Below, piece after piece: positions 9,169-30,148 of a stretch of DNA of 30,640 bases (the first letter of the stretch is position 1; each line of letters opens with the position of its first letter). The notes beneath the pieces were generated by a model. That model saw nothing but the letters and a program-made list of their open reading frames with translations. It searched no databases and was not told the origin of the DNA. The translations under genes and the position numbers were made by a program. Source of the stretch: a virus (lineage: Duplodnaviria > Caudoviricetes). The stretch is from the IMG/VR virus record IMGVR_UViG_3300020325_000054, positions 1 through 30,640 of that record; one strand, 5' to 3'.

Positions 9169-12100
9169 CTAAAATGCTTTAATTAAATATTTTGAGCGAT
9201 GATATCTAGTTAGCAAAGGAATATCCTCTGTAGTTCTCGCTTCAGCAGTAACAGAAACTGGTGTTGATCCAGTCAATGTCAATAAACCGTCAGTAAATCT
9301 AATATTTGAATCTTTAGCAGTTACTGTCCTTTTAACTACATTAATTCCTGCATCTGGTCCACAAGTTCCTGTATTGTTTCCAGGCAGTGTAGCATCACTA
9401 GAAGGAACAAATACATTGTTTGTAACTTCACCATATACCATACCAAATTGTGCTAATCCCCAGTTATCATTAGTTAATCCACCTGGGACATCATCATTAT
9501 CACCAGCAGCATCTGGTCTATTCTGTCTTATAACAAGATAAATGCCACTCTTGCGAGCATCATTTTCCTCATCTAATTCAATAATATAGTTTTCATATCC
9601 TGCCGAACCACCAGGACCGCCAGCAGCAATACGCTCAAGATTAGTTTCTGAAGGAGAATCTAAAGAAGTTTTAAAGAACAAAGAAAAATCTTCCTCTGGT
9701 GTATCACCACCATTAGATCCATTACCTTTGATGACTGTAAATATCAACTTTTCCACAAAAGTGAGATTAAGTGGACCTATTTGCAACCAACGACTCCCTG
9801 CACCCTTAAATTCAACAAATCTCTGTGCTTTGCTATCAGAAAGTGTTGTTGCTGCTGGGAAATTAGATCCCGTTGGAGATCTAACATTCACACCAGAACT
9901 CGCTGAATGCCAGATATTACCAGTTGAAAATGTATCTGGGAAATCTGGAGTGTTAGTAGGCATTCCAGGAACTTCATAATATCTACCTTTAGGACTTGTG
10001 AGTTCAGCTTCCCCAACCTCTGTTGCTGTAATTTCATATGCTTCTACACGGACTTCACCGTCAGCACCCTTGTTACCGTTACCAGCACCACCACCTCCAC
10101 CAGAACCAACACTAATAATTAATTGGGTTGAGATATCTTCATTAATATAATCATTGACAGCAAAACTTAAACCAATTCCAGCGCCAGCGCCACCACCACC
10201 ACCTGGGTCATTTTCTACTTCTCCCTCATAATAAACTTTATATGTGACATAACCTTTACCACCAGATCCAGATGTCTCAACTGCACTACTTATGTGGTTT
10301 TGGTTAACTGCAGATCTACCTCTAAATCCACCATCACCAGATCCAGTGAGAGCATGACCAGCGCCAGCATCACCGCCGCCGCCACCGCCGCCACCGCCAG
10401 CTGGTCCAAAACCACCTCCACCGCCGCCGCCGCCTCCAGCGGTACAACCAGAAGTGCCTCCAGCGGATCCTTGATCTGTACCTACTGAAGATACGGATCT
10501 AAGTCCTCCACCTTGATTATAAGCTACACCACTTCCACCAACCCAGCAAGGATCTTCTGGTGCGCTGCCACCATTCCATCCACCACCTGATCCGCCACCG
10601 CCGCCACCGCCGCCAGCACCCATAATAATACCAACTCCAGTTCTAACTGATGATCCACCGCCACCAGCACCACCTGTCGCTCCGTTACCGCGAGCGCCAC
10701 GACCTCCATTTCCTCCTCTAACTTCACCCTGTCCTGGATTGTCATTTGTATCTTCTGCAATTTTAGGAAATGGACCAATGTTGTTAAATCCGTTACCGCC
10801 TTTTGTTCCAATTTTATGAGTAAAATTGGTAGATCCAGAATATGTTCCCTGAACATATGCACCATTACCACCATATCCTCCTCTAAAACCAGCACCACAT
10901 CCAGAGTTAGCATTGTTGTTGCCATCACCACCAGCACCGCCTGAAAGACCAATAACAACCTTGTCAACGCTACTATCAGATGGTATATAATCTCCTGGTC
11001 TAAAAGTACCATCAGAATTATAAGTTTTAGTGACGTTACCTTCAATTGTAGTAGTGTCAAAACCACCATCACCACCATCTGCTCCAATTGTTCCAGCACT
11101 TCCGCCATCACCACCAGAAGAAGCGTTGGAACCACTACCTCCTAAGTATTCATTTATGCTAAATCTATCATCATTTAAAAGAGCTCCAGGAATTACAGTA
11201 GTACCACGTGTTCCCCCATTGCCACCACCATTTCCAGATCTACCACCTGCTCCTCCATTAGCAGTGACGGTATAAGAAACACCATCAACAAGAAAAGAAA
11301 CACTTGTGTTTCCTCCAGCAATACCATTACCTGATGACCCACCGCCACCGCCACCACCAGCTCTAATCTGCATATCAAAAGAAGATGTTCTAGCTAGAGC
11401 TGGTACTGTATGTGATCCAGGACCATATATTTCCTCAAGACGAAGTTCACCAACACCAACATTAACTCCAGGAACAACTTTTCCACCAATAGTAGTAACA
11501 TTATCAACTACATATACTCTTGGTTCTGGAGTGTATTTTTGCTCCTCGAAAAAACCAGCAGCTTCTCTTATTTGTCCATCTGCACCACCGCCACCAGTAG
11601 TGTTGGCAATGTTTATTGATGTAGAAGTAAGTCCATCTTCTAGAACTTCATATGTACCATCAACAGAAGCGTTTCCTGTTCCTTGTACAACAACAGTATC
11701 ACCTTTAGCAAGTCCATGATCAGTTGTTGCAACAATTGTTATTACTTCTCCATTTCCCGTCCAACTAGAAATGTTTATAGCTGGTGCTTCTGTAATACTA
11801 TATTGTGGACAACCTAAAGCATCTGTTGTATTAGAACCTATGCCATCGGTATTGCCATATGTTGCAATTCTAGAATTACTTGGTCTAGTTCCAAATAAAC
11901 CATGCGAGTGACCTAATGCTTCTTCTCCTTCTGGAACAAATGAAATTACTGATCCTCTTTGTTGAATGTATACGGTTGAATAATTATCAACACCACCAGT
12001 AGTAGCAAACGTACTCGGATCTGGTTGACTATGCAATATTTGGTGTTCGTGTGATGGAGGTTTTGCGTAAATATAATCTTGGATTGGTCCAACAATATAT

Positions 12101-13725
12101 TTTTTCTCACCAACCAAATATGGTTCGATTTGTGTGGTTACATTACTATAACCAGTAGTAATCACATCACTAATTTCAAAAAATTCCTGTGGCGTATTGA
12201 TAGTCTCTCTTGAGATATACCATCTACCACCAGTATCACCCATATTCATAGTGATTCTACTTTCAACCAGTGGAGTTCCTGCCCCTTCAACACCTTCACC
12301 AAATCCAATTAGTTTTCTATCCCTATAATCAGGCACTCTGAATTTGCCCAAAATATATGGATAGTCCTTTAATTGAAATCCTTTTCTAATTCTAACTGTT
12401 GGGTGTCCTGTTACTGGACTTGCAAAAACATCCTGAGGATCAAATGCAGTCCAATCAGCTTCTAAATTTGTAGCGCCAGCACCGCCACCACCTGGCAATC
12501 CAGAACCTCCACCAATAACATCTAAATTACGTTCAAACCATGGTGTTTTTACAAAAAGTTGAGGAATAAATGTTCCAGAACCAAAAGTAAAATCAATATA
12601 CTCAACCAATGACTGACCATCAGTCAAATATGCTTTGACATATAATCTGTAAAGGTGCTCTTCACCCTGAGGTGGTTGAGGACCACAATATCCATTATTG
12701 TACCACTCTGAATCTAATCCCCAAGTAGTAAATTTTTGCTCAACATCACCAAAAGTAACCCCACTTGGCCAAATGCCATTTACATCAATAAAAGTAGTAG
12801 TTGCTGGAATATTTTTTACATGCCAATGAACAAATGCTACTTCTGTTTCACTTGTATCTGGATTATCTCGCGATCCTCCCATTGTAGAAAGATCTTCTAA
12901 AAGAATTTCATATTGATCAATAACAGCTCCCTCTGGAAGACCAGACATTTGTCCCCAACTAAGTGCTATTGTATCATTCTTTGCTCCAGGATAATTTGGA
13001 TATCCAGTTGGATATATTAAATTCCCTGGGTCAAATTCAGGAACAGTTCCGACGTGTGCTATCGGTAATTTTAAATATGTACTACCATCGTTAATTAAAC
13101 TGGAAGATGTAATTTGCCATGTAACAGTTCCACCAGGAGATTCTCCTCCACCACCTCCACCACCAGGATTTGTATTTAAATTAGTAGTAAGAACTCTGTA
13201 TACATGAGTATCAGTTTCTTGAGCGAGAGATTGAAATTGCTCTGTGTAATTTAAACGATATACTCCATCAGATTCAATGGTGGTTCCAGGATTCCAACTA
13301 CCAAGTTCAGGAAATTCAATTGTTGCCCCATCTGGAATTACTCGTTCATAATATGTCGAACCATCTGCCTTTCTTTGACTACGACCATATACTTCAATAA
13401 AAAGATTCCCATTATCAACAAAAGTTCTGTTGATAGATCCTGGTTGTCCATGATATGTATATACTAGTGAATTCCTTTGGACATCAGTTGTTTTGATATA
13501 TTCATCACCAATTACTTGGTATAAATTTGGATAGTCATTGATATTATATTCTGCACCATCACAATACAAATATCCCCTGTAGTCAAATTCAGGGTCTTTT
13601 GCACTGCTATTTTCAATCCGATCAGTATTAGTACCAACAAGAGTCGGGACAATAGCACCCACACTTACATAGGATCCTCCCTTGTCGGAATAGTAATTCG
13701 GTAACGTAGATCTGTAAACTGCCAT
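9169..13725 (-). CDS. Tail-collar-domain, glycine-rich tail fibre (1518 aa)
   Basis: Collar motifs VGAIV, GYLYCDG..YPNLYQVIG and FRVPDYR; HxH motifs (HEH, HSH); long Gly-rich tract; C-terminal KYLIKAF. Confidence 0.85.
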   Translation of the reverse strand: MAVYRSTLPNYYSDKGGSYVSVGAIVPTLVGTNTDRIENSSAKDPEFDYRGYLYCDGAEYNINDYPNLYQVIGDEYIKTTDVQRNSLVYTYHGQPGSINRTFVDNGNLFIEVYGRSQRKADGSTYYERVIPDGATIEFPELGSWNPGTTIESDGVYRLNYTEQFQSLAQETDTHVYRVLTTNLNTNPGGGGGGGESPGGTVTWQITSSSLINDGSTYLKLPIAHVGTVPEFDPGNLIYPTGYPNYPGAKNDTIALSWGQMSGLPEGAVIDQYEILLEDLSTMGGSRDNPDTSETEVAFVHWHVKNIPATTTFIDVNGIWPSGVTFGDVEQKFTTWGLDSEWYNNGYCGPQPPQGEEHLYRLYVKAYLTDGQSLVEYIDFTFGSGTFIPQLFVKTPWFERNLDVIGGGSGLPGGGGAGATNLEADWTAFDPQDVFASPVTGHPTVRIRKGFQLKDYPYILGKFRVPDYRDRKLIGFGEGVEGAGTPLVESRITMNMGDTGGRWYISRETINTPQEFFEISDVITTGYSNVTTQIEPYLVGEKKYIVGPIQDYIYAKPPSHEHQILHSQPDPSTFATTGGVDNYSTVYIQQRGSVISFVPEGEEALGHSHGLFGTRPSNSRIATYGNTDGIGSNTTDALGCPQYSITEAPAINISSWTGNGEVITIVATTDHGLAKGDTVVVQGTGNASVDGTYEVLEDGLTSTSINIANTTGGGGADGQIREAAGFFEEQKYTPEPRVYVVDNVTTIGGKVVPGVNVGVGELRLEEIYGPGSHTVPALARTSSFDMQIRAGGGGGGGSSGNGIAGGNTSVSFLVDGVSYTVTANGGAGGRSGNGGGNGGTRGTTVIPGALLNDDRFSINEYLGGSGSNASSGGDGGSAGTIGADGGDGGFDTTTIEGNVTKTYNSDGTFRPGDYIPSDSSVDKVVIGLSGGAGGDGNNNANSGCGAGFRGGYGGNGAYVQGTYSGSTNFTHKIGTKGGNGFNNIGPFPKIAEDTNDNPGQGEVRGGNGGRGARGNGATGGAGGGGSSVRTGVGIIMGAGGGGGGGGSGGGWNGGSAPEDPCWVGGSGVAYNQGGGLRSVSSVGTDQGSAGGTSGCTAGGGGGGGGGFGPAGGGGGGGGGDAGAGHALTGSGDGGFRGRSAVNQNHISSAVETSGSGGKGYVTYKVYYEGEVENDPGGGGGAGAGIGLSFAVNDYINEDISTQLIISVGSGGGGGAGNGNKGADGEVRVEAYEITATEVGEAELTSPKGRYYEVPGMPTNTPDFPDTFSTGNIWHSASSGVNVRSPTGSNFPAATTLSDSKAQRFVEFKGAGSRWLQIGPLNLTFVEKLIFTVIKGNGSNGGDTPEEDFSLFFKTSLDSPSETNLERIAAGGPGGSAGYENYIIELDEENDARKSGIYLVIRQNRPDAAGDNDDVPGGLTNDNWGLAQFGMVYGEVTNNVFVPSSDATLPGNNTGTCGPDAGINVVKRTVTAKDSNIRFTDGLLTLTGSTPVSVTAEARTTEDIPLLTRYHRSKYLIKAF

Positions 13726-16519: not shown

Positions 16520-19500
16520 TTAGACCTCCTTGAGCCACCAACCTTGTACTCCTGAAGAAACAATTGTTCCATTTGAATCTGTGCCACCAAGGTAGACAAG
16601 GGTAAATCCAGCATTTGGTGTTTGTACAATCAATTCACCAGCAGAATAAGGTGTAGTTCCACCAATACCAATTGTAGTACCAGTAGAATCTCCCTGAACC
16701 CTAGTTCCGATTCCCTGTGCTCTCATGATTAGTGATGTATCATAAGTTAGATTTCCACCAACTTCAATGACAGAAACTGTATCGCCAGATTGAGGATTCT
16801 CTGGTAGATATAGAATTAATGCATCACCTTGATCGACATTTGCAAAATATTGAACATTTGGAGTTAAGAACTTAGCAGAAGGATCAGATCCACTCGCTAC
16901 ATATCTAGCGTGTCTACCACCAGATGATGTATAGAAGTTTGTAAGTCCAAATGCATCAATTGATTGATCTTGGTTTACAGTAAATGTATTAGCACCATTG
17001 GGTCCTAGATTTAAAAGATCAAGTTGTGGTACTTTAGGTGGAATTTCTAATGCTGTACCACGAATGGTTAAACTCTTTCCAGCTAAAACATCACCGTCAA
17101 GATCAACAGAGAATGTTGGACTACATGAGCTGATTGAGTCACTTTCTGGACAAGAAGCAGAGTAGAGTTTAATGTCTCCTCTACCAACAATACCAGCATT
17201 AAATTCAATGTTTCCAGGGTGATCAGCATGACCATCATCATTGTTAACAAACAGAACTGGTGTCTTATTAACAGAATCACTTACAAGAATGCTACCACCA
17301 AGTAATTTAAGATCCTCATTCAGTTTTAGAGATCCAGTTCTATATGGAACATCTCCAACCTGGATAGCATCATTCATTATTGGTGAATGATACTTACCAA
17401 ACAATCCACCATTAACAAAGAACCATTCATCTTTACTATTGTTTCTTACATCAACAAAACGTACCCAGTTGGGGTAATCAAGTTTCTGTTGTACAATATG
17501 ACCGTCACTAATAATTGCTGATACAAAACTACCAGTTCCACTACGAGATCTTAGCTCAATATCATATAAACCAGAACTCTCAGGATGCTTGAGAATTCTT
17601 ATGACACTTGTAGTTGAAGCAGGGTAAACACTCAATCCTTGAGTATTTGTTCCCTCTTGACCAGGCAAACATCTTAAAGTCTTACTTGGTGCATCAATAG
17701 CAGCAATTTTCATGATCTCCCAATTATTGCCAGTCAATCCATTCTGACTAATATCAGAAGTTGCACCAACAATAATTAAATCATCAACAGCAAATTGACC
17801 ATTACCAGTTCCAAGTTCTGCAACTGTTAAATAAGTAGATCCAGCAATAGGACCATTTGCTGCATCTGCATTAAGAGTGGTAGTTGGACCACCTGCGTTA
17901 ATTGTTAGTGGATCTACCCAATAAGAATATACCCTAACATCAGATGTAATATTGTCATATGAAGATACTGTAGTAGAGGGAGTTTCAACATCTGGATATA
18001 CTCTACTAATATCCAATCTCCTTGCCTGATTACCAATTTCAAGTTCAGAGTTGCAAGTATCATAGAAGAAACCAGTTTGTCCTTTGTTGTTAGTGATTAC
18101 AAACTCTTCATTCTTATAAACAATTACCTTTACAGTAAATGTTGCATCAACCTCTAATCTTCTAGTTAATACAATGGTGTTGTTGTCAGTTGCATATCTA
18201 ATCTCCTTGATACGTGTTCTTGGGTAGATACTAAATCTAGTATAGTTCTCGGCAGGATCAAATTTAACTAAATCACCAATTTCAACATTTGCAATATCAG
18301 CATCAGAAATTGCAGTTATGAATTCTGATGCAACATCCTTATAAGTACCAGTGATAGATCCAGTAATTGTTCCACGTATTGGAGAATCACATCCACCATT
18401 GATAGTTAAACCATTATTAATAATGACATCACCCTTAATAGTGGTGTCTCCAGTTACAGAATTAACTATAAACACATCTCCATCAGAAGAATCACAATCA
18501 CCAGAAATTCTAAATTTCTTAGCAACTTGATCGATTAATGTCTTAACTTTAAATACTTCACCTTCATCATCAACACCATCTCCAGATGGAATTCCGTCAT
18601 CACGAGAAATAATTACATAATCTCCAATGGCAATAGTTCCACCAAATTGAGCGAGATAAACATTGTCTTCATTTCCAGAATTATCAATATTTTGAGTAAT
18701 CCAAGTAGAATTAAACTGAACATTACACTTGTAAATCGGTGTAGTATCACTATGATCACTTCTAGTAGAAGTAAATGTTCCAAATGGTAAACGCTCGACT
18801 ACTAAGAAGAATGGAGCAACATTAATTCTTGGTAGAGAGACAACTCTAACAAATTCTGGATGCTGAGCTCCAACTGTAGGTGTATCAATCAATAAAATAT
18901 CATTTTCAGAAATATATTGATCACCTGTTGCAGTAACTGGTTTATTTTTGATCGGTAAGTAATACTGTTCACCAGATAGAGCAGGTAGAACCTGAGGTTG
19001 AATAATTGGTGTTCCACCAATCGTAGTGATTTCATTTTGGAATACAGAACCACCCCAAGTACCGCTACCAGAAGTATCTACAGCATTGTATTCTGCATCA
19101 GCAGTAGTTTTCCTAGCAACACTAATAATATCAACATTAGAGTTGAACAAATTGTTTCCTAGAATGCCACTAGTGTGACTAATTGTGGTAGAACCAATTT
19201 GTCCTCTATCTGCTACAAATGAGTAAGAAGCAACTCCACCACACAAAGTGACATCTGAGTTGAACGTAGCAGTAGAATCAACAATTAGATTATTTCTAAT
19301 TCTTGTATCTCCACCTTGACCAGCAATGGTAATGTCAGAAGCATTGGTAGCAAAATCAATTTTAGTTGTAGCAGAGTTACCAGAGAAAAATTCAACTATA
19401 CCTGCAGTAGTTGACAACTTAACAGTATCAGTAAGACCTCTTCTAGTTCCTAACTGGAAATCTCCAGCAGTTTTGAATGCTTTACTGCCAATTAGGGTAT

Positions 19501-22500
19501 ATGATAAGGTTTCGTTATTATCATATGCACCACCAACTATAATCTGAGAAATGTTACTACTAGTATCAGGAGTATTTCCTAACCAGATATAACTTTCAGT
19601 GGATGCATTTCCAAGATAAGTTCTCTGCTTATCTGTACTAGTATTAAGAACATACAGATCACTTACTTTGTTACCAATATTAAGTGTACCAGTAAATGTA
19701 GAATCTGTAACTAGATTAAATATGCCTGATGTCTGTGATGTTCTAATCTCAGCAGTTACACCATTATCACCATTAACTTCAATGTCATGCTCAAAGCGAG
19801 CATCATCAGTAAATCTAGATAGACCATCAACAACCAATGCTCTGTCTAGTTCAGCATTAGTTACGTTGATACCAACACGACCATTATTTGTAGTTGCAAC
19901 TCTTAGTGTTGCCTCATTGTTTGGAGTTGCACTATCACCACCGACAAGCAATGCATTATTTTCAGCAACTTCAGTTCTGTTACCATATACAGTGTGATCA
20001 AGATAATCAGGAATTGTCTTACCACTAATGAATGCAGTACCAACAACGTCAAGATTTGCACGTGGTGTGGTAAATGGATCAACAAATCCTGTCTTCCATG
20101 CTTCATGCTCAGATCTTGCTACAGTATTGATACCCAACTTATAGTTACCAATAGCAGAAGTTTCAGTTCTTAATGTTTCAGATCCAAGAACTCCAACTTC
20201 CTTCCAGGAAGAGTTGGAGAATTCCATCAATACATTAGGATTGTTAGAAACTTCATTAGACCACAAGCGTGGGTTATCGTTTGCTACATTTCCTCTATTT
20301 TCAAGAATTGCAATCTCGCAACTGGTATCTTCTGGATCAAATCCGTTAGAAAGAATTTGCCAGTTACCATTAAATCCACTATCACTAAAGTTACTAATTC
20401 TAATGTTAGAACCAGAAGTAACACCGACCTGCTTATTCTTAAGATTATTGCCCCAATTAATTTTAATGACAGTGCTGCCATTCATTTGTAGGCTTTCAAT
20501 ATTTGCAGCAGGAATTGCCTGGAAGAAGTTGGCATAAATCCAACCAAGGGATCCAGTAATACCAACTTCATTACCTTTAAGTAGAATATCTCCTGCTAAT
20601 GGTGCTCCTGCATTGCCATATTGTACTGCTTGGAGGGGATCAAGAGCAGTTCCCAATCCAGTGCTATAAAGTGAACTCTGGTTTGGAGTATAGTTAGATC
20701 CTTCATTTCCGACAGCATGGTTCTGGATCTTATATCCTTGTGCAGCACCATTTGAACCACGTGGATTAAACTGGAATACAGAAGCAGCAACTCTGTTCCT
20801 AGCAATAACAATGTCTCCAAATGTATCCTGGTTTAGGAATTGCTGGGTCTTGTCAAGCAAACCATCATCACCATCACTTGGAGAGACATTGGAGATAACA
20901 TTTAAAGCGTAATCTCTTACTCTACCAAGAACATTGATGACAACTGGTGAGTTAAATGTGCTTACCTTATCTTGTTGATCACCACCGTTAACTGTAATAT
21001 TCTCATTGAATGTTACAGGAGTATCAAATGTAGTAACTAGATTACCTACATCTTCAGCATCATCATCAGAATCGACCAATTGTGCAGATTCTAGGAATTC
21101 TTCTTCACCAGTGATAGCATCAATCTTACGGTTACCAATGTATAGGTCACCATTAGAGTTTAGACCAGTGTAGAATACAAGACCACCATCTTGCTTCTTG
21201 GACTGTGCATAGAAGTCCTGAGTTGGAGTCAGAACAATCTCTTGACGAGCAGGAAGACCTGTTGAATAGTTACCAGGACCGAAACCAAGGTATTCAAACG
21301 TATGGTTACCAGCACGGGCAATAGATGGTCTACGTAGTTCAACGTAGAGACGCATATCAGACATTACAGTGCTGTCACCAGCAATAGGAATGCGACGATC
21401 TTCAGAACCAGAAGTTGCGTTACCTTTTTGTGCCTTGATTCTATTATCAACTACAGAAGATACTTGTGTATAAGTATTTCTAGATAATGCTGCCTGAGAA
21501 ATGAAGTCCTCAACCATCTCTCTGGTCATCGAACCCTTAAAGTCGTTAACCGTTACTAAACCATGGGTGTAGTTGTCTGCAGCAGAGTATGTCTGTGGTG
21601 GATCAACAGCATTGACATCCAATTGCTTGAACCAAAGAGGATCGTTCTTGTAGTTCAGTGGATATAGTTTGCTGATTGGTTGAGAGAACTTCATGTTTCT
21701 GAAGTTGCCCTGGTTACCAGCACCAGTTGGGAATGGAGATACATTACCGCGTACAGCAGTTAGATAGTAGATACCATCTTGCTGACCGTAAATACGACGC
21801 TGAATTTCTAAAGAGTCGAAGATGTAGAAGGTATCATCTAGTTCACCAGTATCAGTGACTGACTCAACATAGTATTGAACGTTTGCATCATCAGTGATAA
21901 TGTCACCAGGGGTTACAGTGTAAACTGATGCACCTTTTTGTCTATAGTAATATTCTGGATATCCCTTAGCGATTAGATCCTTGATGTATAGTGACTTACC
22001 AAAGTCAGGATCATTTAATAGATCTGCAAATACGGATCCCTGAGAGAATCTGATGTTATCAAATTCAGAGTAATCAATCTTGCCAGATACACCCTTAATA
22101 ATTAGATGCCACTCTGAAGTTCCAGGAACATTGAGTGCTGCATGTAGATAACCATAACCAGAAGAATTACCAAACCATTCAATTCTATTAGTAGAATCTA
22201 AGGACTGAGTTCTATCAGCAACAAAATTACCACCCTGTGGAGCAGTAATTTTAACTGTAGTGAAGGTCTCATTTAATAGTCCTAGATTTGTAACACCTAA
22301 GTCAAATACATCTAACTCTAGTAATTCATCTCCACTGCTTCCATCAATGAAGTATCTACCAGATTGAATTGTCATTGAGACATAATTTTGTGTCTCAATA
22401 ACCTTGGCATACTGTGTACCACCTACAATATCCCTCTTATAGGGATCATATGCCACTTCTTCATTCAAGCTGTTATCGATAAAATCTTGCTTGGTATAAC

Positions 22501-25500
22501 CAATGACTTCATTTGCCTGAACTGGGTTGAAGAATCTTGCTTTTGTTACAGAACCAGTGACTGGTCTGAGGACAAGTTTCTGTGGCAAGAGTTTTCTAGT
22601 TTCGTCCTTACGAACTTTAATTGAGAATCCATTAATAGGATCACGAACTGCCTGAAGATACTTAGGAATTACATAACGTAGACGATAGATACGCTCATCT
22701 GCTTCTCTTTCATCCTTGATTCTCTCAAACCACGTATCATTGGTCTTATCCTGTCCAGATAGATCGCTATAAGTGTTTTCATGCAATCTAGTTAGAATAT
22801 TGTAAGTATACTGTGGATCGTTAGGATTCTCAGAGTGATTTTCTACCTGTAAATACCACTTACCATAAATTTGAGGTGACGTATCTGGATTTTGATACGT
22901 TGGGTCAAATCGCATTGGCGCTTCACGCTTATCAGCGAATGCTGCAAAGTCATAAGTTCCTGGTTGGAACGTAATTGGATTTACATTAGCAATAGCATCT
23001 GCTTTCGTAGTGTGAATTGTAAATACCTTTTCATTCTGGTATCTTGCCCAGAAAGAAGCATTTTGTTTAATTCTACCATTTGAGTCAGAAACACTAGGAT
23101 CCTGAGCATATGCAGCACCAACGAGTGGTAAAGATCCGCCCTCATTTGCACGGAAGAATACTTGATGTCCTGTGACACTTGCAAAAGGAACATCGAAGAT
23201 ATGAGGAACATCGGTACGAATACCAGAGTTTACAGCAGTATCTAAAATACAATTATATTGATGCAGATCATACTTGTCATCTAGAACAAACTGATAGATA
23301 TCGATCTCAATATCAGGATCAATCGCCTCAACTTCTGATGAGTGAATGTAAATACCAGCAGCAGCATTCTCTTTACTGCTTGCAAGCATCAACTTAGTTT
23401 GGTCACTACCATCAAATGCACCAACTCCAGAATAATCTTCTGGTTTGGTTGTTCTACCAGGAGCAATTACATAATACTTTTCATTAGTATCAAATCCACT
23501 AGGCAATCTAACCTTTCTCTTATCAACATCAACATACTGATTCGTTACTGTATCGTATCTTGGACGTGGTACTAGTCGAACTGGAGTACCAGATTCTAGA
23601 TTGTGTGGGTTGGTTCCAGTAGAATCTCTAAGTGTCCAAACTGTTGCTCTAGAAGCAAGTTCAGTTGTTAATTGTGTTGGTTCATTTCTAGGAACAGTAT
23701 TGAGACCTGTCTGAATAATAGTTGTGATGTTAGCAAAATACTGACGGATAGCAGATGCTTGATCAGCACACTCTGGATACGTAGTATGTTGAGTAATCGT
23801 CTCGTCTACCGTTGGACTAAACTCAGATGTGTATGTTCCAGATGTAAGAGTAAAGTATAGATACAGATTGCTACTCGTAGCATTAGCATTGACTGATGGT
23901 CCAAATGCTAATCCAAGAGGAGCTTCCTGTCTTTCAATCGACTCAAGATATCCAGAATTAGTGATAGTATCAGTAAGAATCTTAAACAAAGTTGTAATAG
24001 CAGATGCTACATTTTGACAAGATCCATTTGATATGGTTCTTCCAACTGAAGAAAGTGTGCTAGGAGTAATTACAGCATCCTGAACAATTGTGAACAGAGT
24101 GTTGATAGTTGATCTCACATCCTCACAAGATCCTACAGACACTGTTCTTGGAACACCAGCAAGAGTACCAGGAGTAGTAATTGCATTAGTTACAATGGTA
24201 GTAAGAGTTGTTAATGCATCTCTCACATCATTACAAGGTCCTGCAGATACTGTTCTAGTAACACTATAGAGTGTGCTGCCAGCAGAAATAGTATTTGTTA
24301 ATAATTGTACCAAAGAAGCAATTGTAGTTGCTTGATCAACACATGCAGGATTATTGGTGTCTGTAGTAATTGTGTTGTCAAATGTTTGAGAAAGTGATGT
24401 ATAGCTACCAGCAGTAACAGTTTCATTTCTCATGACTTCAATCATCAAATCTCTTGCTTCATTGAAAGCATATAGAGTTTGTGTTTCTTCACCAGAAACA
24501 TGCTGACCAGTTGCATAAAGATTTGCAGCGTCCCAGGTGCGATCGTTTCCACCAAATGCCAGGTTGTGTGCAACAACTTCAATGATATCTTTAATATCAT
24601 CAATACAATCAGTATCATTGTTAGTAGGAACAGCAAATGTTGGATACTGATTCTTCATTCTACCAAAAGCAACTTCAGCGATGAAGTTTTTGTTAGATAG
24701 AATTAGATCCTTGGCATCAGCTGATTTATTGTTGACAGGTGTGGCAATATTATCAGTAATTGTATTGTCAAACGTTTGTGTATGACCATGAGAACCTACT
24801 TTGAGAACCTTTTCATTTCTCAGCACTTGAATCATAATGTCACGAGCATAATCAAGAGCATCAACTGTCTGAACTTCTTCACCAGCTACATGAGCTCCCT
24901 GGACATATAGATTAGACATGTCCCAGACACGATCATTTCCACCAAATGCAAGGTTATATGATACTTCCTCGACAAAATCTTGAATATCATCAATACAATC
25001 TAGAGGATTGCCAGTTGGTACAGAGAATCCAGGATGTTCTGCAAGCATTCTTGCATATGCTTCATATGCAATTAAACTCTTGTTTGCTAAAATTAAATCT
25101 CTAGCATCACCATTGCGGTCAACTACTGGATCAGGAATATCATATGTAATTGTTGTGTCATAGGTTTGTGTTAAACCATGAGATCCTATAGAAAGAATCT
25201 TCTGATTTCTCATTACCTGAGCAGCCATCTCTTTTGCTTGCTCAAAGACATAATTGGTCTCTGCTTCTTCACCTGCTACGTGAGCACCATGAACATATGA
25301 ATATGCAGCATCCCACGTCTTATCGTTGCCACCATATGCAACGTTATCTGCAACTGCTTCTAGAAGATCTACAACGTCATCAATACAGTTCTGATTACCA
25401 CCAGCAACAGTGAATGAAGGGTAAACCGCAAGCATTCTAGCAACCGCTTCTGCCGCGATTAGATCCTTGTTAGCAAGAATCAAGTTACGAGCATCACCAT

Positions 25501-28396
25501 TACGGTCAGTGACTAGTTCTGGTGCAACATATGTAATGCTGGTGTCTTTGGTTTGTGTTAAACCATGTGCGCCAAATACAAATACATCCTCATTACGCAT
25601 TACCTGAATCGCCATGTCTCTGGCATATTCAAACGCACGAATAGTTTGTGCTTCTTCACCAGCAACATGTGCTCCTGTTTCATACAAATATGCAGCATCC
25701 CATGTCTCTGCGTTACCACCATATGCTGTATTTTCAGAAACTGCTTCTAAGACATCGATGATATCATCGATGCAGTCCTGTTGATTTCCTGTTGGGGTAA
25801 CAAAACCAGGAAAATCAAGAACCATACGCTCATATGCTTCAGTAGCAATGAAATTCTTGTTAGCAAGGATGAGATCTTTAGCGTCACCATATCGATCAGA
25901 TACTACTTTCTTTTCAGAAAATACTGCCTTCTGTCCAATCTCAATGAATGAAGAGTTAACAATACGCTTGACATATGTCCCATCAGGGATTACTGGAGAT
26001 GAAGGTCTAGTTGCATTTTCATTTAATTTTCCATCAGTAAATTCAGATGGATCATAATCTGCAATAAGCATACCCTGAACAATTCCAGAGGTATCACCAA
26101 CATCAACTAAAGATGCTCCAGCAGTAGATGCTCCACCTTGACGAAGGTAAGAGAAATTACGCATTGCTGCGATTGCAAGGTCTCTAGCGTAATTGTAACC
26201 CTCTAAAGTTTCAGTTAGTTCTCCTGTAATGTAAGAGAGGTTATTACCAACGTAATAAGATTCCGCTGCTTGAATAGTATTAATATTACCACCAAGACGG
26301 AGATCTTGAATAGTAGCATCAATTAGATATCCAATATCACGACGACATTTTTCAATCGTGATGTTTTCCTTAATCGTGATGTTAGGATACTTACCAGTGA
26401 TATATCCATATGCTTCATATGCAATGAAGTTTTTATTTTCTTCAATCCTATTTGCAGCATCTAGATCCTTATTGTTAATCGTTACTGTTCCAGGATTTAG
26501 AATATCAGCAGTTGCCGTAAATTTCTTAAATCCGTTTGGAGTAAGAGTTGCATTAAAAATATTATCCGATCCAGCAGACCTTGGAGTTAATTTAACATAT
26601 AATTTTTCATCAGTTCTAGAACCGATTCTAAAACCGTCAATAGATGCTGCTGGACGGTCAGCAGGATCAAAACCATCATCATTACCAAGATATACTTTAG
26701 TATGATTATTTGGATCGTTAGATGCTTTTACATCGATGGTGTAATATGCATTCTTTTTGGTATTTCCAGTTGTTTCTGGAACAATTTGAGGTGGGATAAT
26801 ATCAGTAATATATCCACCTTTATCTTGATTGAACGCAAATCCTTTAAAACCGATTGCGTGCAGTGAAGTATTACCGAAGTTAGAGTTAGAGTTGGTGATA
26901 GACATGTCACCACCCGACTCCATCAGGAAGTGATCAGCGAAACCAACAGCGAAGATCGAAACGTTCTGAATAAATGCGTCTTCAGATGCACGAACGTGGA
27001 AGTTTCTCCAGTCATCCTTCCAGTATGCATCACCTTTGGTGTGATAAGGAACCGTTGCAAACGCATCAGTTAGTGATGCTTGGTTCCAAGTATTGGTATA
27101 CTCGTCGTAACGAATGAACGCTCTGTCGTCTTTCTGTAGTGAAACACCAGTGTACTGAGCGATAACCATGGATTTAAATCCAGTGGCTTTCAGACCGTTT
27201 GCCCAGATTCCGCAAATACCCCAGGTAGAACGAATAGAGCAGTTAAAGACATACGGAGATGCGGATTCAACAGAGTCAACTTCCGCTTTAACTACCGCGT
27301 TTGCACTTAATCCATTCTGAGAAGTATAGGTTGTTCCGCTTACAAGACCAGCAGTAGTTCCTAGAGCGGCAACAGTTCCACCAATTTGATACTTAAATTT
27401 TCTAGAGTCAACTAAGTCAATCTCACTGATTGGGAATGTGCCATTAAGTTGATCATCCAGACCATTGCCTTCAATTGCAATAAACTGGTTCTTAAAATAT
27501 CCATGATCAACTTTAGTTGTAATTTCAACAGTGATAGTTCCTGCAGGAGAGGAATCTGTACACTTAATACTCTCAATAGAGCGAATATCTGAGAGAGGAC
27601 CAACAATTCTGGTCTCCTGAATTCTTTCAGTGAATTCACCTGGATCATCAATTGTTGGTTGATATTGAGAGAATGCCTTTGCAATCTTTCTATAGTACAG
27701 ACCAAGTTCTTCCTTGTCTGCATATTCAAAAACAGTTAATTTGTGGTGAGAATAGTTAGGAACTGCTAACTGGTCCCAATATCCATTCTGATAGTAAACT
27801 TTACCTACACCTTCATTCTTGTCATAGAGAGGAGAAGAAGGTTCTAGGTCACCATCCTTAATGGTGAATTGCCAGAAGTAACATGCACCCGTAACATTAA
27901 AGATAGCAGAACGCTTCTCTAATCTATCAGCAGGGTCAGGAACATATAGAGGACGAACAACAGTACGGCGAAGGTCATAACCTACAAGAGATGAACCTCT
28001 AGGAAGGATAGCACCACCTTCAGTGTTGTTAAAGAGATATAACTTGTTATTTGGATCAGAGATATCAAGGTTAGAGCTATCTTCCCACTCATTTAATGCT
28101 TGATTGAACGAGAAAGCATCAATACCATTAGTATCTACAAGACCTGGACGGTTATCAATATAGTGATTACCAGGCATCAACATGATCGTGAACTGGTCAA
28201 AACGATCATTGTCGGGACCAGGCAGATAAGAATACCTAGCAATTTCTAGGAATGCTCTCTGAATGGACTTGAATGGTCTAATAGGCGAATTGCCTCGGTT
28301 ATTCAACTCATCCGACGCATTAAAATCGTCAGGAGAAACATACAAATACTTACCAGTTTTGGAGCTGATAAGGTTATCAAGTCTAGTCAAAGCCAT
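16520..28396 (-). CDS. Giant virion structural protein / long tail fibre (~3958 aa)
   Basis: Late promoter upstream; N-terminal YVS..D..RG....PFKSIQRA; internal repeats; fibre-type GRVGIN/KLGIN motifs; gp34-like LP..PQSGDTV repeat at the C-terminus. ATG 28396 preferred over TTG 28405. Confidence 0.85.
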   Translation of the reverse strand: MALTRLDNLISSKTGKYLYVSPDDFNASDELNNRGNSPIRPFKSIQRAFLEIARYSYLPGPDNDRFDQFTIMLMPGNHYIDNRPGLVDTNGIDAFSFNQALNEWEDSSNLDISDPNNKLYLFNNTEGGAILPRGSSLVGYDLRRTVVRPLYVPDPADRLEKRSAIFNVTGACYFWQFTIKDGDLEPSSPLYDKNEGVGKVYYQNGYWDQLAVPNYSHHKLTVFEYADKEELGLYYRKIAKAFSQYQPTIDDPGEFTERIQETRIVGPLSDIRSIESIKCTDSSPAGTITVEITTKVDHGYFKNQFIAIEGNGLDDQLNGTFPISEIDLVDSRKFKYQIGGTVAALGTTAGLVSGTTYTSQNGLSANAVVKAEVDSVESASPYVFNCSIRSTWGICGIWANGLKATGFKSMVIAQYTGVSLQKDDRAFIRYDEYTNTWNQASLTDAFATVPYHTKGDAYWKDDWRNFHVRASEDAFIQNVSIFAVGFADHFLMESGGDMSITNSNSNFGNTSLHAIGFKGFAFNQDKGGYITDIIPPQIVPETTGNTKKNAYYTIDVKASNDPNNHTKVYLGNDDGFDPADRPAASIDGFRIGSRTDEKLYVKLTPRSAGSDNIFNATLTPNGFKKFTATADILNPGTVTINNKDLDAANRIEENKNFIAYEAYGYITGKYPNITIKENITIEKCRRDIGYLIDATIQDLRLGGNINTIQAAESYYVGNNLSYITGELTETLEGYNYARDLAIAAMRNFSYLRQGGASTAGASLVDVGDTSGIVQGMLIADYDPSEFTDGKLNENATRPSSPVIPDGTYVKRIVNSSFIEIGQKAVFSEKKVVSDRYGDAKDLILANKNFIATEAYERMVLDFPGFVTPTGNQQDCIDDIIDVLEAVSENTAYGGNAETWDAAYLYETGAHVAGEEAQTIRAFEYARDMAIQVMRNEDVFVFGAHGLTQTKDTSITYVAPELVTDRNGDARNLILANKDLIAAEAVARMLAVYPSFTVAGGNQNCIDDVVDLLEAVADNVAYGGNDKTWDAAYSYVHGAHVAGEEAETNYVFEQAKEMAAQVMRNQKILSIGSHGLTQTYDTTITYDIPDPVVDRNGDARDLILANKSLIAYEAYARMLAEHPGFSVPTGNPLDCIDDIQDFVEEVSYNLAFGGNDRVWDMSNLYVQGAHVAGEEVQTVDALDYARDIMIQVLRNEKVLKVGSHGHTQTFDNTITDNIATPVNNKSADAKDLILSNKNFIAEVAFGRMKNQYPTFAVPTNNDTDCIDDIKDIIEVVAHNLAFGGNDRTWDAANLYATGQHVSGEETQTLYAFNEARDLMIEVMRNETVTAGSYTSLSQTFDNTITTDTNNPACVDQATTIASLVQLLTNTISAGSTLYSVTRTVSAGPCNDVRDALTTLTTIVTNAITTPGTLAGVPRTVSVGSCEDVRSTINTLFTIVQDAVITPSTLSSVGRTISNGSCQNVASAITTLFKILTDTITNSGYLESIERQEAPLGLAFGPSVNANATSSNLYLYFTLTSGTYTSEFSPTVDETITQHTTYPECADQASAIRQYFANITTIIQTGLNTVPRNEPTQLTTELASRATVWTLRDSTGTNPHNLESGTPVRLVPRPRYDTVTNQYVDVDKRKVRLPSGFDTNEKYYVIAPGRTTKPEDYSGVGAFDGSDQTKLMLASSKENAAAGIYIHSSEVEAIDPDIEIDIYQFVLDDKYDLHQYNCILDTAVNSGIRTDVPHIFDVPFASVTGHQVFFRANEGGSLPLVGAAYAQDPSVSDSNGRIKQNASFWARYQNEKVFTIHTTKADAIANVNPITFQPGTYDFAAFADKREAPMRFDPTYQNPDTSPQIYGKWYLQVENHSENPNDPQYTYNILTRLHENTYSDLSGQDKTNDTWFERIKDEREADERIYRLRYVIPKYLQAVRDPINGFSIKVRKDETRKLLPQKLVLRPVTGSVTKARFFNPVQANEVIGYTKQDFIDNSLNEEVAYDPYKRDIVGGTQYAKVIETQNYVSMTIQSGRYFIDGSSGDELLELDVFDLGVTNLGLLNETFTTVKITAPQGGNFVADRTQSLDSTNRIEWFGNSSGYGYLHAALNVPGTSEWHLIIKGVSGKIDYSEFDNIRFSQGSVFADLLNDPDFGKSLYIKDLIAKGYPEYYYRQKGASVYTVTPGDIITDDANVQYYVESVTDTGELDDTFYIFDSLEIQRRIYGQQDGIYYLTAVRGNVSPFPTGAGNQGNFRNMKFSQPISKLYPLNYKNDPLWFKQLDVNAVDPPQTYSAADNYTHGLVTVNDFKGSMTREMVEDFISQAALSRNTYTQVSSVVDNRIKAQKGNATSGSEDRRIPIAGDSTVMSDMRLYVELRRPSIARAGNHTFEYLGFGPGNYSTGLPARQEIVLTPTQDFYAQSKKQDGGLVFYTGLNSNGDLYIGNRKIDAITGEEEFLESAQLVDSDDDAEDVGNLVTTFDTPVTFNENITVNGGDQQDKVSTFNSPVVINVLGRVRDYALNVISNVSPSDGDDGLLDKTQQFLNQDTFGDIVIARNRVAASVFQFNPRGSNGAAQGYKIQNHAVGNEGSNYTPNQSSLYSTGLGTALDPLQAVQYGNAGAPLAGDILLKGNEVGITGSLGWIYANFFQAIPAANIESLQMNGSTVIKINWGNNLKNKQVGVTSGSNIRISNFSDSGFNGNWQILSNGFDPEDTSCEIAILENRGNVANDNPRLWSNEVSNNPNVLMEFSNSSWKEVGVLGSETLRTETSAIGNYKLGINTVARSEHEAWKTGFVDPFTTPRANLDVVGTAFISGKTIPDYLDHTVYGNRTEVAENNALLVGGDSATPNNEATLRVATTNNGRVGINVTNAELDRALVVDGLSRFTDDARFEHDIEVNGDNGVTAEIRTSQTSGIFNLVTDSTFTGTLNIGNKVSDLYVLNTSTDKQRTYLGNASTESYIWLGNTPDTSSNISQIIVGGAYDNNETLSYTLIGSKAFKTAGDFQLGTRRGLTDTVKLSTTAGIVEFFSGNSATTKIDFATNASDITIAGQGGDTRIRNNLIVDSTATFNSDVTLCGGVASYSFVADRGQIGSTTISHTSGILGNNLFNSNVDIISVARKTTADAEYNAVDTSGSGTWGGSVFQNEITTIGGTPIIQPQVLPALSGEQYYLPIKNKPVTATGDQYISENDILLIDTPTVGAQHPEFVRVVSLPRINVAPFFLVVERLPFGTFTSTRSDHSDTTPIYKCNVQFNSTWITQNIDNSGNEDNVYLAQFGGTIAIGDYVIISRDDGIPSGDGVDDEGEVFKVKTLIDQVAKKFRISGDCDSSDGDVFIVNSVTGDTTIKGDVIINNGLTINGGCDSPIRGTITGSITGTYKDVASEFITAISDADIANVEIGDLVKFDPAENYTRFSIYPRTRIKEIRYATDNNTIVLTRRLEVDATFTVKVIVYKNEEFVITNNKGQTGFFYDTCNSELEIGNQARRLDISRVYPDVETPSTTVSSYDNITSDVRVYSYWVDPLTINAGGPTTTLNADAANGPIAGSTYLTVAELGTGNGQFAVDDLIIVGATSDISQNGLTGNNWEIMKIAAIDAPSKTLRCLPGQEGTNTQGLSVYPASTTSVIRILKHPESSGLYDIELRSRSGTGSFVSAIISDGHIVQQKLDYPNWVRFVDVRNNSKDEWFFVNGGLFGKYHSPIMNDAIQVGDVPYRTGSLKLNEDLKLLGGSILVSDSVNKTPVLFVNNDDGHADHPGNIEFNAGIVGRGDIKLYSASCPESDSISSCSPTFSVDLDGDVLAGKSLTIRGTALEIPPKVPQLDLLNLGPNGANTFTVNQDQSIDAFGLTNFYTSSGGRHARYVASGSDPSAKFLTPNVQYFANVDQGDALILYLPENPQSGDTVSVIEVGGNLTYDTSLIMRAQGIGTRVQGDSTGTTIGIGGTTPYSAGELIVQTPNAGFTLVYLGGTDSNGTIVSSGVQGWWLKEV
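23960..24350 (-). repeat. Four 36-aa helical repeats (C..V...I.TL..I.T..I)
   Basis: Cys codons at 24343, 24235, 24127 and 24019, exactly 108 nt apart. Confidence 0.9.
24360..25894 (-). repeat. Four tandem ~130-aa repeats (DA..LILANK..CIDD..GGN..WD..HVAGEE)
   Basis: Repeat-start Asp codons at 25885, 25495, 25108 and 24718 (spacing 390, 387, 390 nt). Confidence 0.95.
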
Positions 28397-28437
28397 ATTA
28401 CTCAACCGCTGCGGTTATCTAAGATCTGATCTCAGAT

Positions 28438-29143: not shown

Positions 29144-29152
29144 TTGGGAATA

Positions 29153-29266
29153 CCCCCTGCTCGTCAGCAGGGGAGGCTCGAGAAGGATCCCACTTCTCTC
29201 TCACATGGGTTGGGATTCCGATTCTTTTTTCTCTCGGAGATGTGAGCACGGATGTCGCCAATCCGT
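29153..29266 (-). ncRNA. Candidate structured RNA between tRNA-Ala and tRNA-Asn
   Basis: Five perfect stems and a 6-bp pseudoknot can be read directly from the sequence (see finding). Confidence 0.7.
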
Positions 29267-29269
29267 TTA

Positions 29270-29342
29270 TGGAGAATAGCGGACTCGAACCGCTGACATC
29301 CTGCTTGCAAAGCAGGCGCTCTACCAACTGAGCTAATTCCCC
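29270..29342 (-). tRNA. tRNA-Ala (TGC)
   Basis: GGGGAAT/ATTCTCC acceptor stem with G3:U70; anticodon loop TTTGCAA. Confidence 0.97.
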
Positions 29343-29617
29343 AGAGGGGGTATCCCACCCCCAGTAGGTTATTTGGGTAACAAGGCTAACCTAACCCCGA
29401 TCTCCCATATCAGGCAGCAACGGTGCTGCGGGAGAATGCTACGATGTTGTTCGCAGCGACATCAGATGTGTTTGCATCTATTGGTTGCTTATCCAAGCAG
29501 GTTTCAGTCACGCTCCTTATACCCCGTCGAGACCATTGCGCCCCCATGAGTGGAAGCGAGGAGAATCGAACTCCTGTCCGAAATATCGGTGGCGTCACCT
29601 ATTCCACAAAAGTGGAA
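29343..29617 (-). ncRNA. ssrA: Circularly permuted (two-piece) tmRNA
   Basis: Acceptor piece ..GGACAGGAGTTCGATTCTCCTCGCTTCCA ends at 29551. After a 5-nt spacer, the coding piece starts GGGGGCGCAATGGTCTCGACGGGG at 29545. G3:U70 is present and the tag frame ends ANNIVAFSRSTVAA-stop at 29410. Outer ends are inferred from the flanking tRNAs. Confidence 0.93.
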
Positions 29618-29691
29618 AGCCACATGTCGGACTTGAACCGACGACCTACGGTTTACAAAACCGTTGCTCTATCCAGCTGAGCTAAAGTGGC
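29618..29691 (-). tRNA. tRNA-Thr (TGT)
   Basis: Cloverleaf; anticodon loop TTTGTAA; one U:U mismatch in the acceptor stem. Confidence 0.95.
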
Positions 29692-30148
29692 GCATGAATT
29701 CTAGATGTCCCCATTGAGAACCCCAGATTTTTTGTCCTGTTTCGGGGTCAATTCCCGAATCCATGACCTTGTAGATATTATATCCTAAAACAATGTCGTT
29801 TGTCAAGTAAGTTTTAATTCCTTTCCAATTGACCCAACAATTACAATCTGTGTTGTGTCCATGATATTCACTACCAACTAACTCAAAGATTGTATCACAT
29901 CCTTTTTTGTATACATCACCATTTTTGTCATAATTTTTGATGCGAAATTTTTCTCCTTCTGGGAAAACTCGCATCCGAAAATGCCTGTATGGTCTATCTT
30001 GTGAGTGATAGTATGCTTGTTTACCTTCAAACCATTCACCGCCTATCCATTCATGTGTGATGATTATTCTAGCATATCTTGTGGGATATTGCATCGCTTG
30101 CAAGCGATTATCAAAAGTTCCCTCAAGATAGTCATGAAAATGTGTCAT
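29669..30148 (-). CDS. cpeT: CpeT/CpcT-like phycobiliprotein lyase
   Basis: LEGTFDNRLQAMQYPTRYARI..QAY....RPYR..GCD..D.G.D..TGQKIWGS.WG.LEF matches phage T-type bilin lyases. Confidence 0.88.
   Translation of the reverse strand: MTHFHDYLEGTFDNRLQAMQYPTRYARIIITHEWIGGEWFEGKQAYYHSQDRPYRHFRMRVFPEGEKFRIKNYDKNGDVYKKGCDTIFELVGSEYHGHNTDCNCWVNWKGIKTYLTNDIVLGYNIYKVMDSGIDPETGQKIWGSQWGHLEFMRHFSSAG

Follow-up and report, generated by a model that had tools for sequence, protein, structure and literature searches.

The virus fragment analysed here (the window, meaning the whole 30,640-nucleotide stretch) carries on its minus strand, at 29617–29346, a complete circularly permuted tmRNA gene of cyanobacterial type. 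The added part, relative to the host form, is a likely extension of the tag together with a predicted hairpin at the site where translation resumes, both present in phages and absent in hosts. The gene is intact, and we infer from the sequence that it probably supplies an extra, working ribosome-rescue RNA during infection.

At gathering threshold, the Rfam model RF01851 (cyano_tmRNA) matched over its entire length at 29633–29346, minus strand (score 169.9 bits, cut-off 70 bits, E 1.7e-47), and RF04321 (tmRNA_permuted) matched at 29599–29410 (96.3 bits, threshold 47 bits). ARAGORN called a permuted tmRNA with the tag ANTSDVAANNIVAFSRSTVAA closed by a stop. The preliminary description, made from the letters of the window, had proposed a phage-encoded, permuted two-piece tmRNA inside a tRNA array; the whole-model match and the permuted call bear this out, the gene lies between tRNA-Thr and tRNA-Ala, and a phage-borne permuted tmRNA of picocyanobacterial type is thus supported by sequence. 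A second ARAGORN call, a one-piece tmRNA at 29270–29525, borrows the tRNA-Ala and was rejected. Overlapping contig pieces from marine DNA run X2 spanned 29317–29672 with 0 differences, and those from run X1 spanned 29317–29653 without differences except in one 65-base piece (3 differences). Because independent marine runs reproduce the region base for base, the gene is not an assembly artefact. Contigs of relatives from RNA-library runs X15, X16, X17 and X20 covered parts of the gene (for example 29373–29655, with 21 differences); neither transcription nor RNA ends nor CCA can be read from contigs, and such libraries can contain DNA.

At 30.6 kb and 16% completeness, the window is a piece of a T4-like cyanomyovirus genome; its T4-like flanks include genes for tail collar and short tail fibre proteins, for 2OG-Fe(II) oxygenases and for CpeT. 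No close cultured relative of the phage was found: the best record matched at 81% over 9% of 22.6 kb, and the best matches were Synechococcus phages. On the minus strand the local order is cpeT, tRNA-Thr, tmRNA, tRNA-Ala, a 125-nt spacer, tRNA-Asn and a 2OG oxygenase. The features of the locus, in the direction of the gene, are as follows.

29777–29806, minus strand: predicted sigma-70-type promoter (12/12 consensus, 18-nt spacer), inside the 3′ part of cpeT
29618–29691, minus strand: tRNA-Thr(TGT), by ARAGORN, abutting the tmRNA gene
29602–29617, minus strand: hairpin opening the acceptor piece at its 5′ end (6 bp with a T4 loop; from the sequence), matching the first stem of RF01851
29551–29601, minus strand: acceptor piece (Rfam, folding and covariation), CCA not fully encoded
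29598–29592, minus strand: helix 2b strand of the acceptor piece
29586–29579, minus strand: helix 2a strand of the acceptor piece
29575–29559, minus strand: T arm
29558–29552, minus strand: acceptor 3′ strand CGCTTCC, with the discriminator A at 29551
29546–29550, minus strand: intervening sequence CTCAT, 5 nt (from the sequence; excision predicted)
29486–29545, minus strand: 5′ part of the coding piece, with G1 at 29545 and the acceptor 5′ strand at 29545–29539, then the D-loop
29526–29519, minus strand: helix 2a strand of the coding piece
29513–29507, minus strand: helix 2b strand of the coding piece
29499–29486, minus strand: 5-bp hairpin of the coding piece
29463–29480, minus strand: resume-site hairpin, phage-specific, positions −5 to +1 pairing with +8 to +13 around a 6-nt loop
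29410–29475, minus strand: tag reading frame (ARAGORN, positional and motif tests), with the predicted resume codon GCA at 29475–29473 and TGA at 29412–29410
29401–29435, minus strand: tag-end hairpin, outer stem 29435–29430 with 29406–29401, inner stem 29429–29424 with 29419–29414
29365–29399, minus strand: H-type pseudoknot, stem 1 29399–29395 with 29385–29381, stem 2 29393–29387 with 29371–29365
29346–29362, minus strand: 3′-terminal hairpin of the coding piece (Rfam and alignment), no U run after it
29269–29343, minus strand: tRNA-Ala(TGC), by ARAGORN and Rfam, directly downstream of the tmRNA gene

The structure was examined in an alignment of the window gene with 29 related phage genes, picked from 76 full-length ones by similar tag length. 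Taken over these 30 genes, the named structure is paired in 92.8% of its cells and has two-sided changes in 22/61 pairs, a level reached in 0/500 shuffles; sliding the partners lowered pairing to 46–53%. The acceptor stem (7 bp, with G3:U70 and A73) and the T stem are 100% paired, with two-sided changes present, and the D-loop has no stem. As the preliminary description had it, the 3′ half precedes the 5′ half (29575–29551, then CTCAT at 29550–29546, then G1 at 29545), the alanine determinant G3:U70 is present, and helix 2 can form between the pieces. Helix 2a comprises 8 bp, including 3 G:U, and helix 2b contains one G:G mismatch; two-sided changes occur in 4/6 and 3/8 pairs of the helix. Single-sequence folding recovered neither helix 2 nor the pseudoknot, so both rest on covariation. 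Two further elements of the earlier model stood in part. In the tag-end hairpin, the outer stem TCTCCC/GGGAGA pairs in 174/175 cells with two-sided changes, and the inner stem, which sits in a part of variable length, is complementary in sequence only. In the pseudoknot, stem 2 stands (two-sided changes in 5/7 pairs), but the GGGT/ACCC pairing proposed for stem 1 fails: it pairs in 105/119 cells, with A:A in 12/30 rows and no two-sided change. Stem 1 is instead CGGGG/CCTTG (CGGGG/CCUUG in RNA), which pairs in 150/150 cells, switches from C-G to G-C in 14/30 rows and matches the Rfam structure line.

Blastn gave long matches to the gene in only 16/50,697 phage records, the relatives being Sf-FS3 (the closest cultured, 87% over 98% of the gene), S-CAM1, S-CAM3, AG-345-P14, S-SSM7 and S-SSM6a; a tmRNA annotation was absent in all five carrier phage records examined. 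Pattern scans of IMG/VR and GTDB brought together 318 sequences (317 loci and the window), of which 302 could be parsed and 16 could not, yielding 210 distinct genes: 116 from hosts, 88 from IMG/VR, 5 from cultured or single-cell phages, and the window. Twelve viral and 3 host genes without a complete cyano-type tag were dropped before tags were counted. The patterns all stem from the window or the Rfam consensus and the host scan took in 120 of ~420 stretches, so the gene sets lean to similar genes. The scan with the acceptor pattern also turned up three IMG/VR permuted tmRNAs of non-cyanobacterial type (L178, L254 and L203), with 27- and 21-nt spacers and a different coding piece.

A FastTree tree, midpoint-rooted, was built from 30 of the 103 distinct host genes and 81 phage genes. 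All 30 sampled host genes fall into one compact group (support 0.78), separate from the far more diverse phage genes, which look mosaic in the tree; the window tmRNA shares 93% identity with the best-matching phage gene and 75% with the best-matching host gene. This suggests long residence of the tmRNA in phages, on a midpoint-rooted tree that gives no direction of transfer.

Parsing required G3:U70, which together with A73 is found in 94/94 viral and 116/116 host genes. The window has an extra wobble, G4:U69, in 19/94 viral versus 0/116 host genes. The intervening sequence is short in phages, at 5 nt in 47/94 viral genes and 4–9 nt in 87/94; among hosts, 5 nt occurs in 1/116 genes and 6 nt in 12/116. 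Separately, 4/94 viral genes (L023:2054–2126, L026:2052–2127, L044:1865–1937 and L046:1908–1983) hold a whole tRNA-Asn(GTT) gene inside an 81-nt intervening sequence; a similar case, a tRNA-Ala in the tmRNA of a nominally archaeal MAG, is called unique in one account (PMC11915505).

Host tags are uniform: 113/113 have 16 residues, all ending in Ala-Ala. The 82 complete phage tags, by contrast, run from 14 to 32 residues, each frame closed by a stop, and only 28/82 end in Ala-Ala; the other 54/82 end in TA (23), AV (14), TV (11), LV (3) or otherwise (3). Extension ahead of the ANNIV/ANKIV core is found in 66/82, by seven codons in 62 and by six in 4. The window tag is of the seven-codon type with a VAA end, 21 codons in all, likely read as ANTSDVA-ANNIVAFSRSTVAA, with the extension at 29475–29455 and the host-like core starting at 29454. 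The tag is host-like (ANNIV) in its core and not at its start, where the preliminary description had overlooked the seven extra codons and the hairpin. Core codons 8–12 vary almost only synonymously among phage tags, extension codons 1 and 7 are Ala with third-position variation, and codons 3–6 vary in residue; given this variation in extension residues, selection may act mainly on hairpin and frame. Variants reading ANNIDTA-ANNIV (L023, L024, L044 and L217) point to tandem duplication of the tag start as the source of the extension, and on this sequence evidence the extra leading codons probably arose in that way. The longest phage tags, of up to 28–32 residues, carry in-frame insertions after ANNIVAFSR and end in TA, TV, AV or LV (L013, L023–L026, L034–L046, L177–L183 and others).

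The hairpin at the predicted resume site pairs in 173/180 cells of the alignment, two of its pairs being changed on both sides in 8/30 rows, and in the window fold its pair probabilities are 0.88–1.0. Folding also suggests a second hairpin immediately behind it. From −6 to +15, the 66 extended genes collapse to 21 distinct sequences, all of which (21/21) form a 4–6 bp hairpin there: 15/21 have a 5–6 bp stem (−4 to +1 with +8 to +12) and 6/21 a 4-bp stem (−3 to +1 with +9 to +12). Compensatory switches are seen from G-C to U-A at −3:+11 and from A-U to C-G at −2:+10, and one variant of the other register has U-A switched to C-G. These changes may go back to a small number of events passed down within a clade, but more than one group in the tree contains the two registers next to each other. 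Four stacked pairs at the resume site were found in 0/15 host variants and in 3/10 short-tag phage variants, the remaining 7/10 having no hairpin. In local 42-nt folds, pairing above 0.5 at −3 to +1 was obtained for 46/49 extended, 7/12 short and 6/42 host sequences.

How such a gene would act can be laid out step by step. Transcription would be early, by host RNA polymerase and together with the neighbouring tRNAs; judged by its sequence, the promoter likely drives tRNA-Thr, tmRNA, tRNA-Ala, the spacer RNA and tRNA-Asn. Of 72 phage loci, 31 have a site matching 11–12/12 positions within 400 nt upstream; the opposite strand gives 3 and shuffles give 2. For the S-CAM1/S-CAM3 group, the best such site is 40 nt ahead of helix 2. 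Host tRNA-processing enzymes, which the preliminary description had likewise invoked with inferential support here, would then cut the precursor into two base-paired pieces. A cut 3′ of tRNA-Thr would create the 5′ end of the acceptor piece, a second would fall after A 29551 and be followed by CCA addition, a third would fall at G1 (29545), and RNase P cleavage at the 5′ end of tRNA-Ala would leave the 3′ end of the coding piece. The window's 5-nt spacer falls at the lower limit of host lengths and 9 viral genes make do with 4 nt, so the RNase P and 3′ cuts are assumed to be efficient; the Prochlorococcus tmRNA appears as two pieces on Northern blots (PMC1242208). In 38/80 evaluable phage loci a tRNA-Thr(TGT) precedes the tmRNA by no more than 25 nt, and in 32/80 a tRNA of some kind is found within 85 nt of the tag stop, so that borrowing ends from flanking tRNAs is common and not required. 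The RNA would next be charged with alanine and used with host SmpB, a dependence already suggested in the preliminary description and consistent with the lack of any smpB match (PF01668) in the window record or in 5/5 complete carrier genomes (control positive in 10/14). Until use the resume site would be held in its hairpin, to be unwound on the ribosome; the 21-codon tag ANTSDVAANNIVAFSRSTVAA would be added to the stalled protein, and its VAA end would direct ClpXP-type degradation. C-termini of the VAA type are known to lead to degradation of this kind.

Translation likely resumes at the upstream GCA (29475). Here the upstream site lies 70 nt from G1, compared with 71–73 nt in 113/113 hosts, and an internal ANNIV site would sit 91 nt from G1. 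A working tmRNA that instead resumes at the internal GCG (29454), with the tag ANNIVAFSRSTVAA and the 21-nt insert serving only as a structural hairpin, seems improbable. Such a reading would suit the nearly invariant ANNIV core beside varying extension residues, a hairpin that uses sequence equal to 16–18 of the 21 inserted bases and sequesters the upstream site, and the motif-like site found one codon ahead of the core in 16 IMG/VR genes and AG-345-P14. It is opposed by the pyrimidine-A at −5/−4, present in 113/113 hosts and at only 1/66 internal sites of extended genes (missing in 65/66), by the short-tag phages, whose ANNIV lies at the same G1 distance as the first Ala of extended tags, and by the inserts themselves, which are of 21 or 18 nt, multiples of three, in frame and stop-free. 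Those points, with the third-position variation of the extension's Ala codons, are the grounds for the upstream site. The upstream site's own motif match is circular, as the site was chosen by a motif rule; no such circularity affects the distance test or the failure of the internal site. Positions −5/−4 set the frame and are read by SmpB in E. coli structures (PMC8363625), and a preference for AUAG/AUAA is on record (PMC4236655).

Other accounts concern the role or origin of the gene. The phage copy might compete with host tmRNA for SmpB and so change the fate of rescued proteins, with less or rerouted proteolysis, or might act as an inhibitor in the manner of the tRNA-like-domain-only RNA of mycobacteriophage DS6A (PMC4131195). 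No SmpB was found in the five complete carrier genomes, and an Ala-Ala end is lacking in 54/82 phage tags and present in all host ones; yet the window tag ends in VAA as hosts' do, and the whole coding piece, tag frame, tag-end hairpin and pseudoknot are kept with covariation, none of which a pure decoy needs. For the window this is unlikely, and competition that alters proteolysis is more plausible for relatives without the Ala-Ala end. An SmpB-titrating fragment strictly of the DS6A type (tRNA-like domain only, no tag frame) was rejected, the full conserved coding piece and tag frame being present. Somewhat less doubtful, though still not to be favoured, is that the gene is kept specifically because a defence nuclease or phage RNA breakdown destroys the host tmRNA, the resume hairpin giving resistance; a backup for cleaved host tmRNA had been suggested in the preliminary description. 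The hairpin does cover an otherwise single-stranded stretch in far more extended phage than host sequences, and a parallel hypothesis has been published for phage tRNAs (PMC10264068). Set against this, no data on the fate of host tmRNA in infection were found, most short-tag phage variants do without the hairpin, and E. coli has a similar hairpin with no phage context. As a reason for retention, replacement of destroyed host tmRNA is compatible with the extra-rescue-RNA reading preferred here. It is extremely improbable, and already largely refuted, that the gene is a relic in decay, is left over from an integration site or is host DNA brought in by misassembly. Presence is patchy and tmRNA genes are common integration sites (PMC9004378, PMC11915505), but the gene is complete with covarying stems, its nearest relative is a phage gene and the sampled hosts group apart, the flanks are those of a T4-like cyanophage, and the sequence recurs unchanged in independent runs. 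More speculatively, as a tentative possibility of rather low probability, these genes may form a long-diverged cyanomyovirus tmRNA family in which duplication of the tag start gave both a longer degron and a hairpin shielding the phage RNA from nucleases that cleave the exposed resume region of the host RNA, and in which the variable tags (14–32 residues, many without Ala-Ala) re-route proteases or adaptors. If true, the phage tmRNA would be no spare copy but a re-engineered device for quality control.

The novelty implied in the preliminary description does not hold. Permuted tmRNAs are listed for seven named cyanophages (S-CAM1, S-CAM3, S-SSM7, S-SSM6a, S-CBWM1, S-CRM01 and AG-345-P14) in a supplementary table of 2022 (Buchholz et al., Table S1, PMC9004378), so the phage permuted tmRNA is not new as a kind; the same source gives a two-piece tmRNA for Methylophilales phage Melnitz and counts 53 of 133 unique phage tmRNAs as two-piece. 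One-piece phage tmRNAs are given, beside the DS6A case, in PMC4131195. The cyanomyovirus genes of Table S1 share gene form and virus group with the window, and S-CAM1 and S-CAM3 read ANTSDSAANNIVAFSRSTVAA, one residue off the window tag, and carry the same resume hairpin; the table gives gene topology only, and the tag extension, resume hairpin, promoter and empty site are not described in it. Melnitz resembles the window in having a phage-encoded permuted tmRNA with an early promoter in a marine T4-like myovirus, under the same idea of maintaining translation, but its tmRNA is of alphaproteobacterial type with a reported glutamine riboswitch (PMC9004378), whereas no Rfam riboswitch family matched in the window. 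With the two-piece tmRNA of marine and freshwater picocyanobacteria (Synechococcus, Prochlorococcus, Cyanobium; RF01851) the window shares permuted order, helix 2, a single pseudoknot, the ANNIV core, the VAA end and G3:U70. These hosts have a 16-residue tag, a mostly longer spacer (5–98 nt as parsed), G4:C69 and no resume hairpin, whereas the window has 21 codons, a 5-nt spacer, the hairpin, G4:U69 and flanking tRNAs.

The principle of the hairpin is already known, as E. coli tmRNA has a comparable one: at U88–A100 the resume codon is covered by a short stem, for which a protective role until use has been proposed (PMC8363625). That tmRNA is one-piece and its hairpin has a different register; in the window the stem also covers the −4/−5 positions read by SmpB and is backed by compensatory changes across phages. 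No report of the cyanophage tag extension or resume hairpin was found in the open-access literature covered, and the 79 phage tmRNAs counted in PMC11915505 may already include annotations of such tags. Host tags are invariant in length and end and phage tags are not, and the hairpin is kept by compensatory change, which together supply concrete mutations for frame, RNA stability and proteolysis.

Synechococcus phage Sf-CH1b has the same cpeT–Thr–Ala–Asn–2OG order without the 272 tmRNA bases, its tRNA-Thr and tRNA-Ala lying 2 bases apart, and a junction of tRNA-Thr with tRNA-Ala is seen as well in contigs from runs X15 and X5. Given these empty sites, the tmRNA gene is an optional cassette, dispensable in relatives. 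The gene is present in four Synechococcus phages in culture and missing from one cultured relative with the same local order; these natural with/without pairs make testable a neglected question, namely what a phage tmRNA does.

Several minor observations concern the surroundings. The stop codon of cpeT (29669–30148, minus strand) at 29671–29669 lies inside tRNA-Thr (29618–29691), so that an RNase P cut would strip the cpeT mRNA of its stop and make it a possible substrate for tmRNA. The overlap also exists in Sf-CH1b, which has no tmRNA, and is therefore not tied to the gene. Between tRNA-Ala and tRNA-Asn, 29144–29268 (minus strand) is a 125-nt unannotated, conserved structured RNA candidate. 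It has 82–93% matches in 17 Synechococcus phage records, lies between two tRNAs in 6/7 of those examined, and is represented by 34 distinct full copies with visibly compensatory stems (z −2.3); no Rfam family matched it near threshold, and its presence in Sf-CH1b makes it independent of the tmRNA. A 3961-aa tail-region protein (16520–28405, minus strand) exceeds the Pfam threshold of PF00502 Phycobilisome with a summed score of 38.7 bits, none of its stretches being significant by itself (best at residues 644–694), a match that may reflect repeats or a phycobiliprotein-like insert. A 1518-aa collar-domain fibre protein (9169–13725, minus strand) contains a PBP/YbhB-like domain (PF01161) at residues 270–369.
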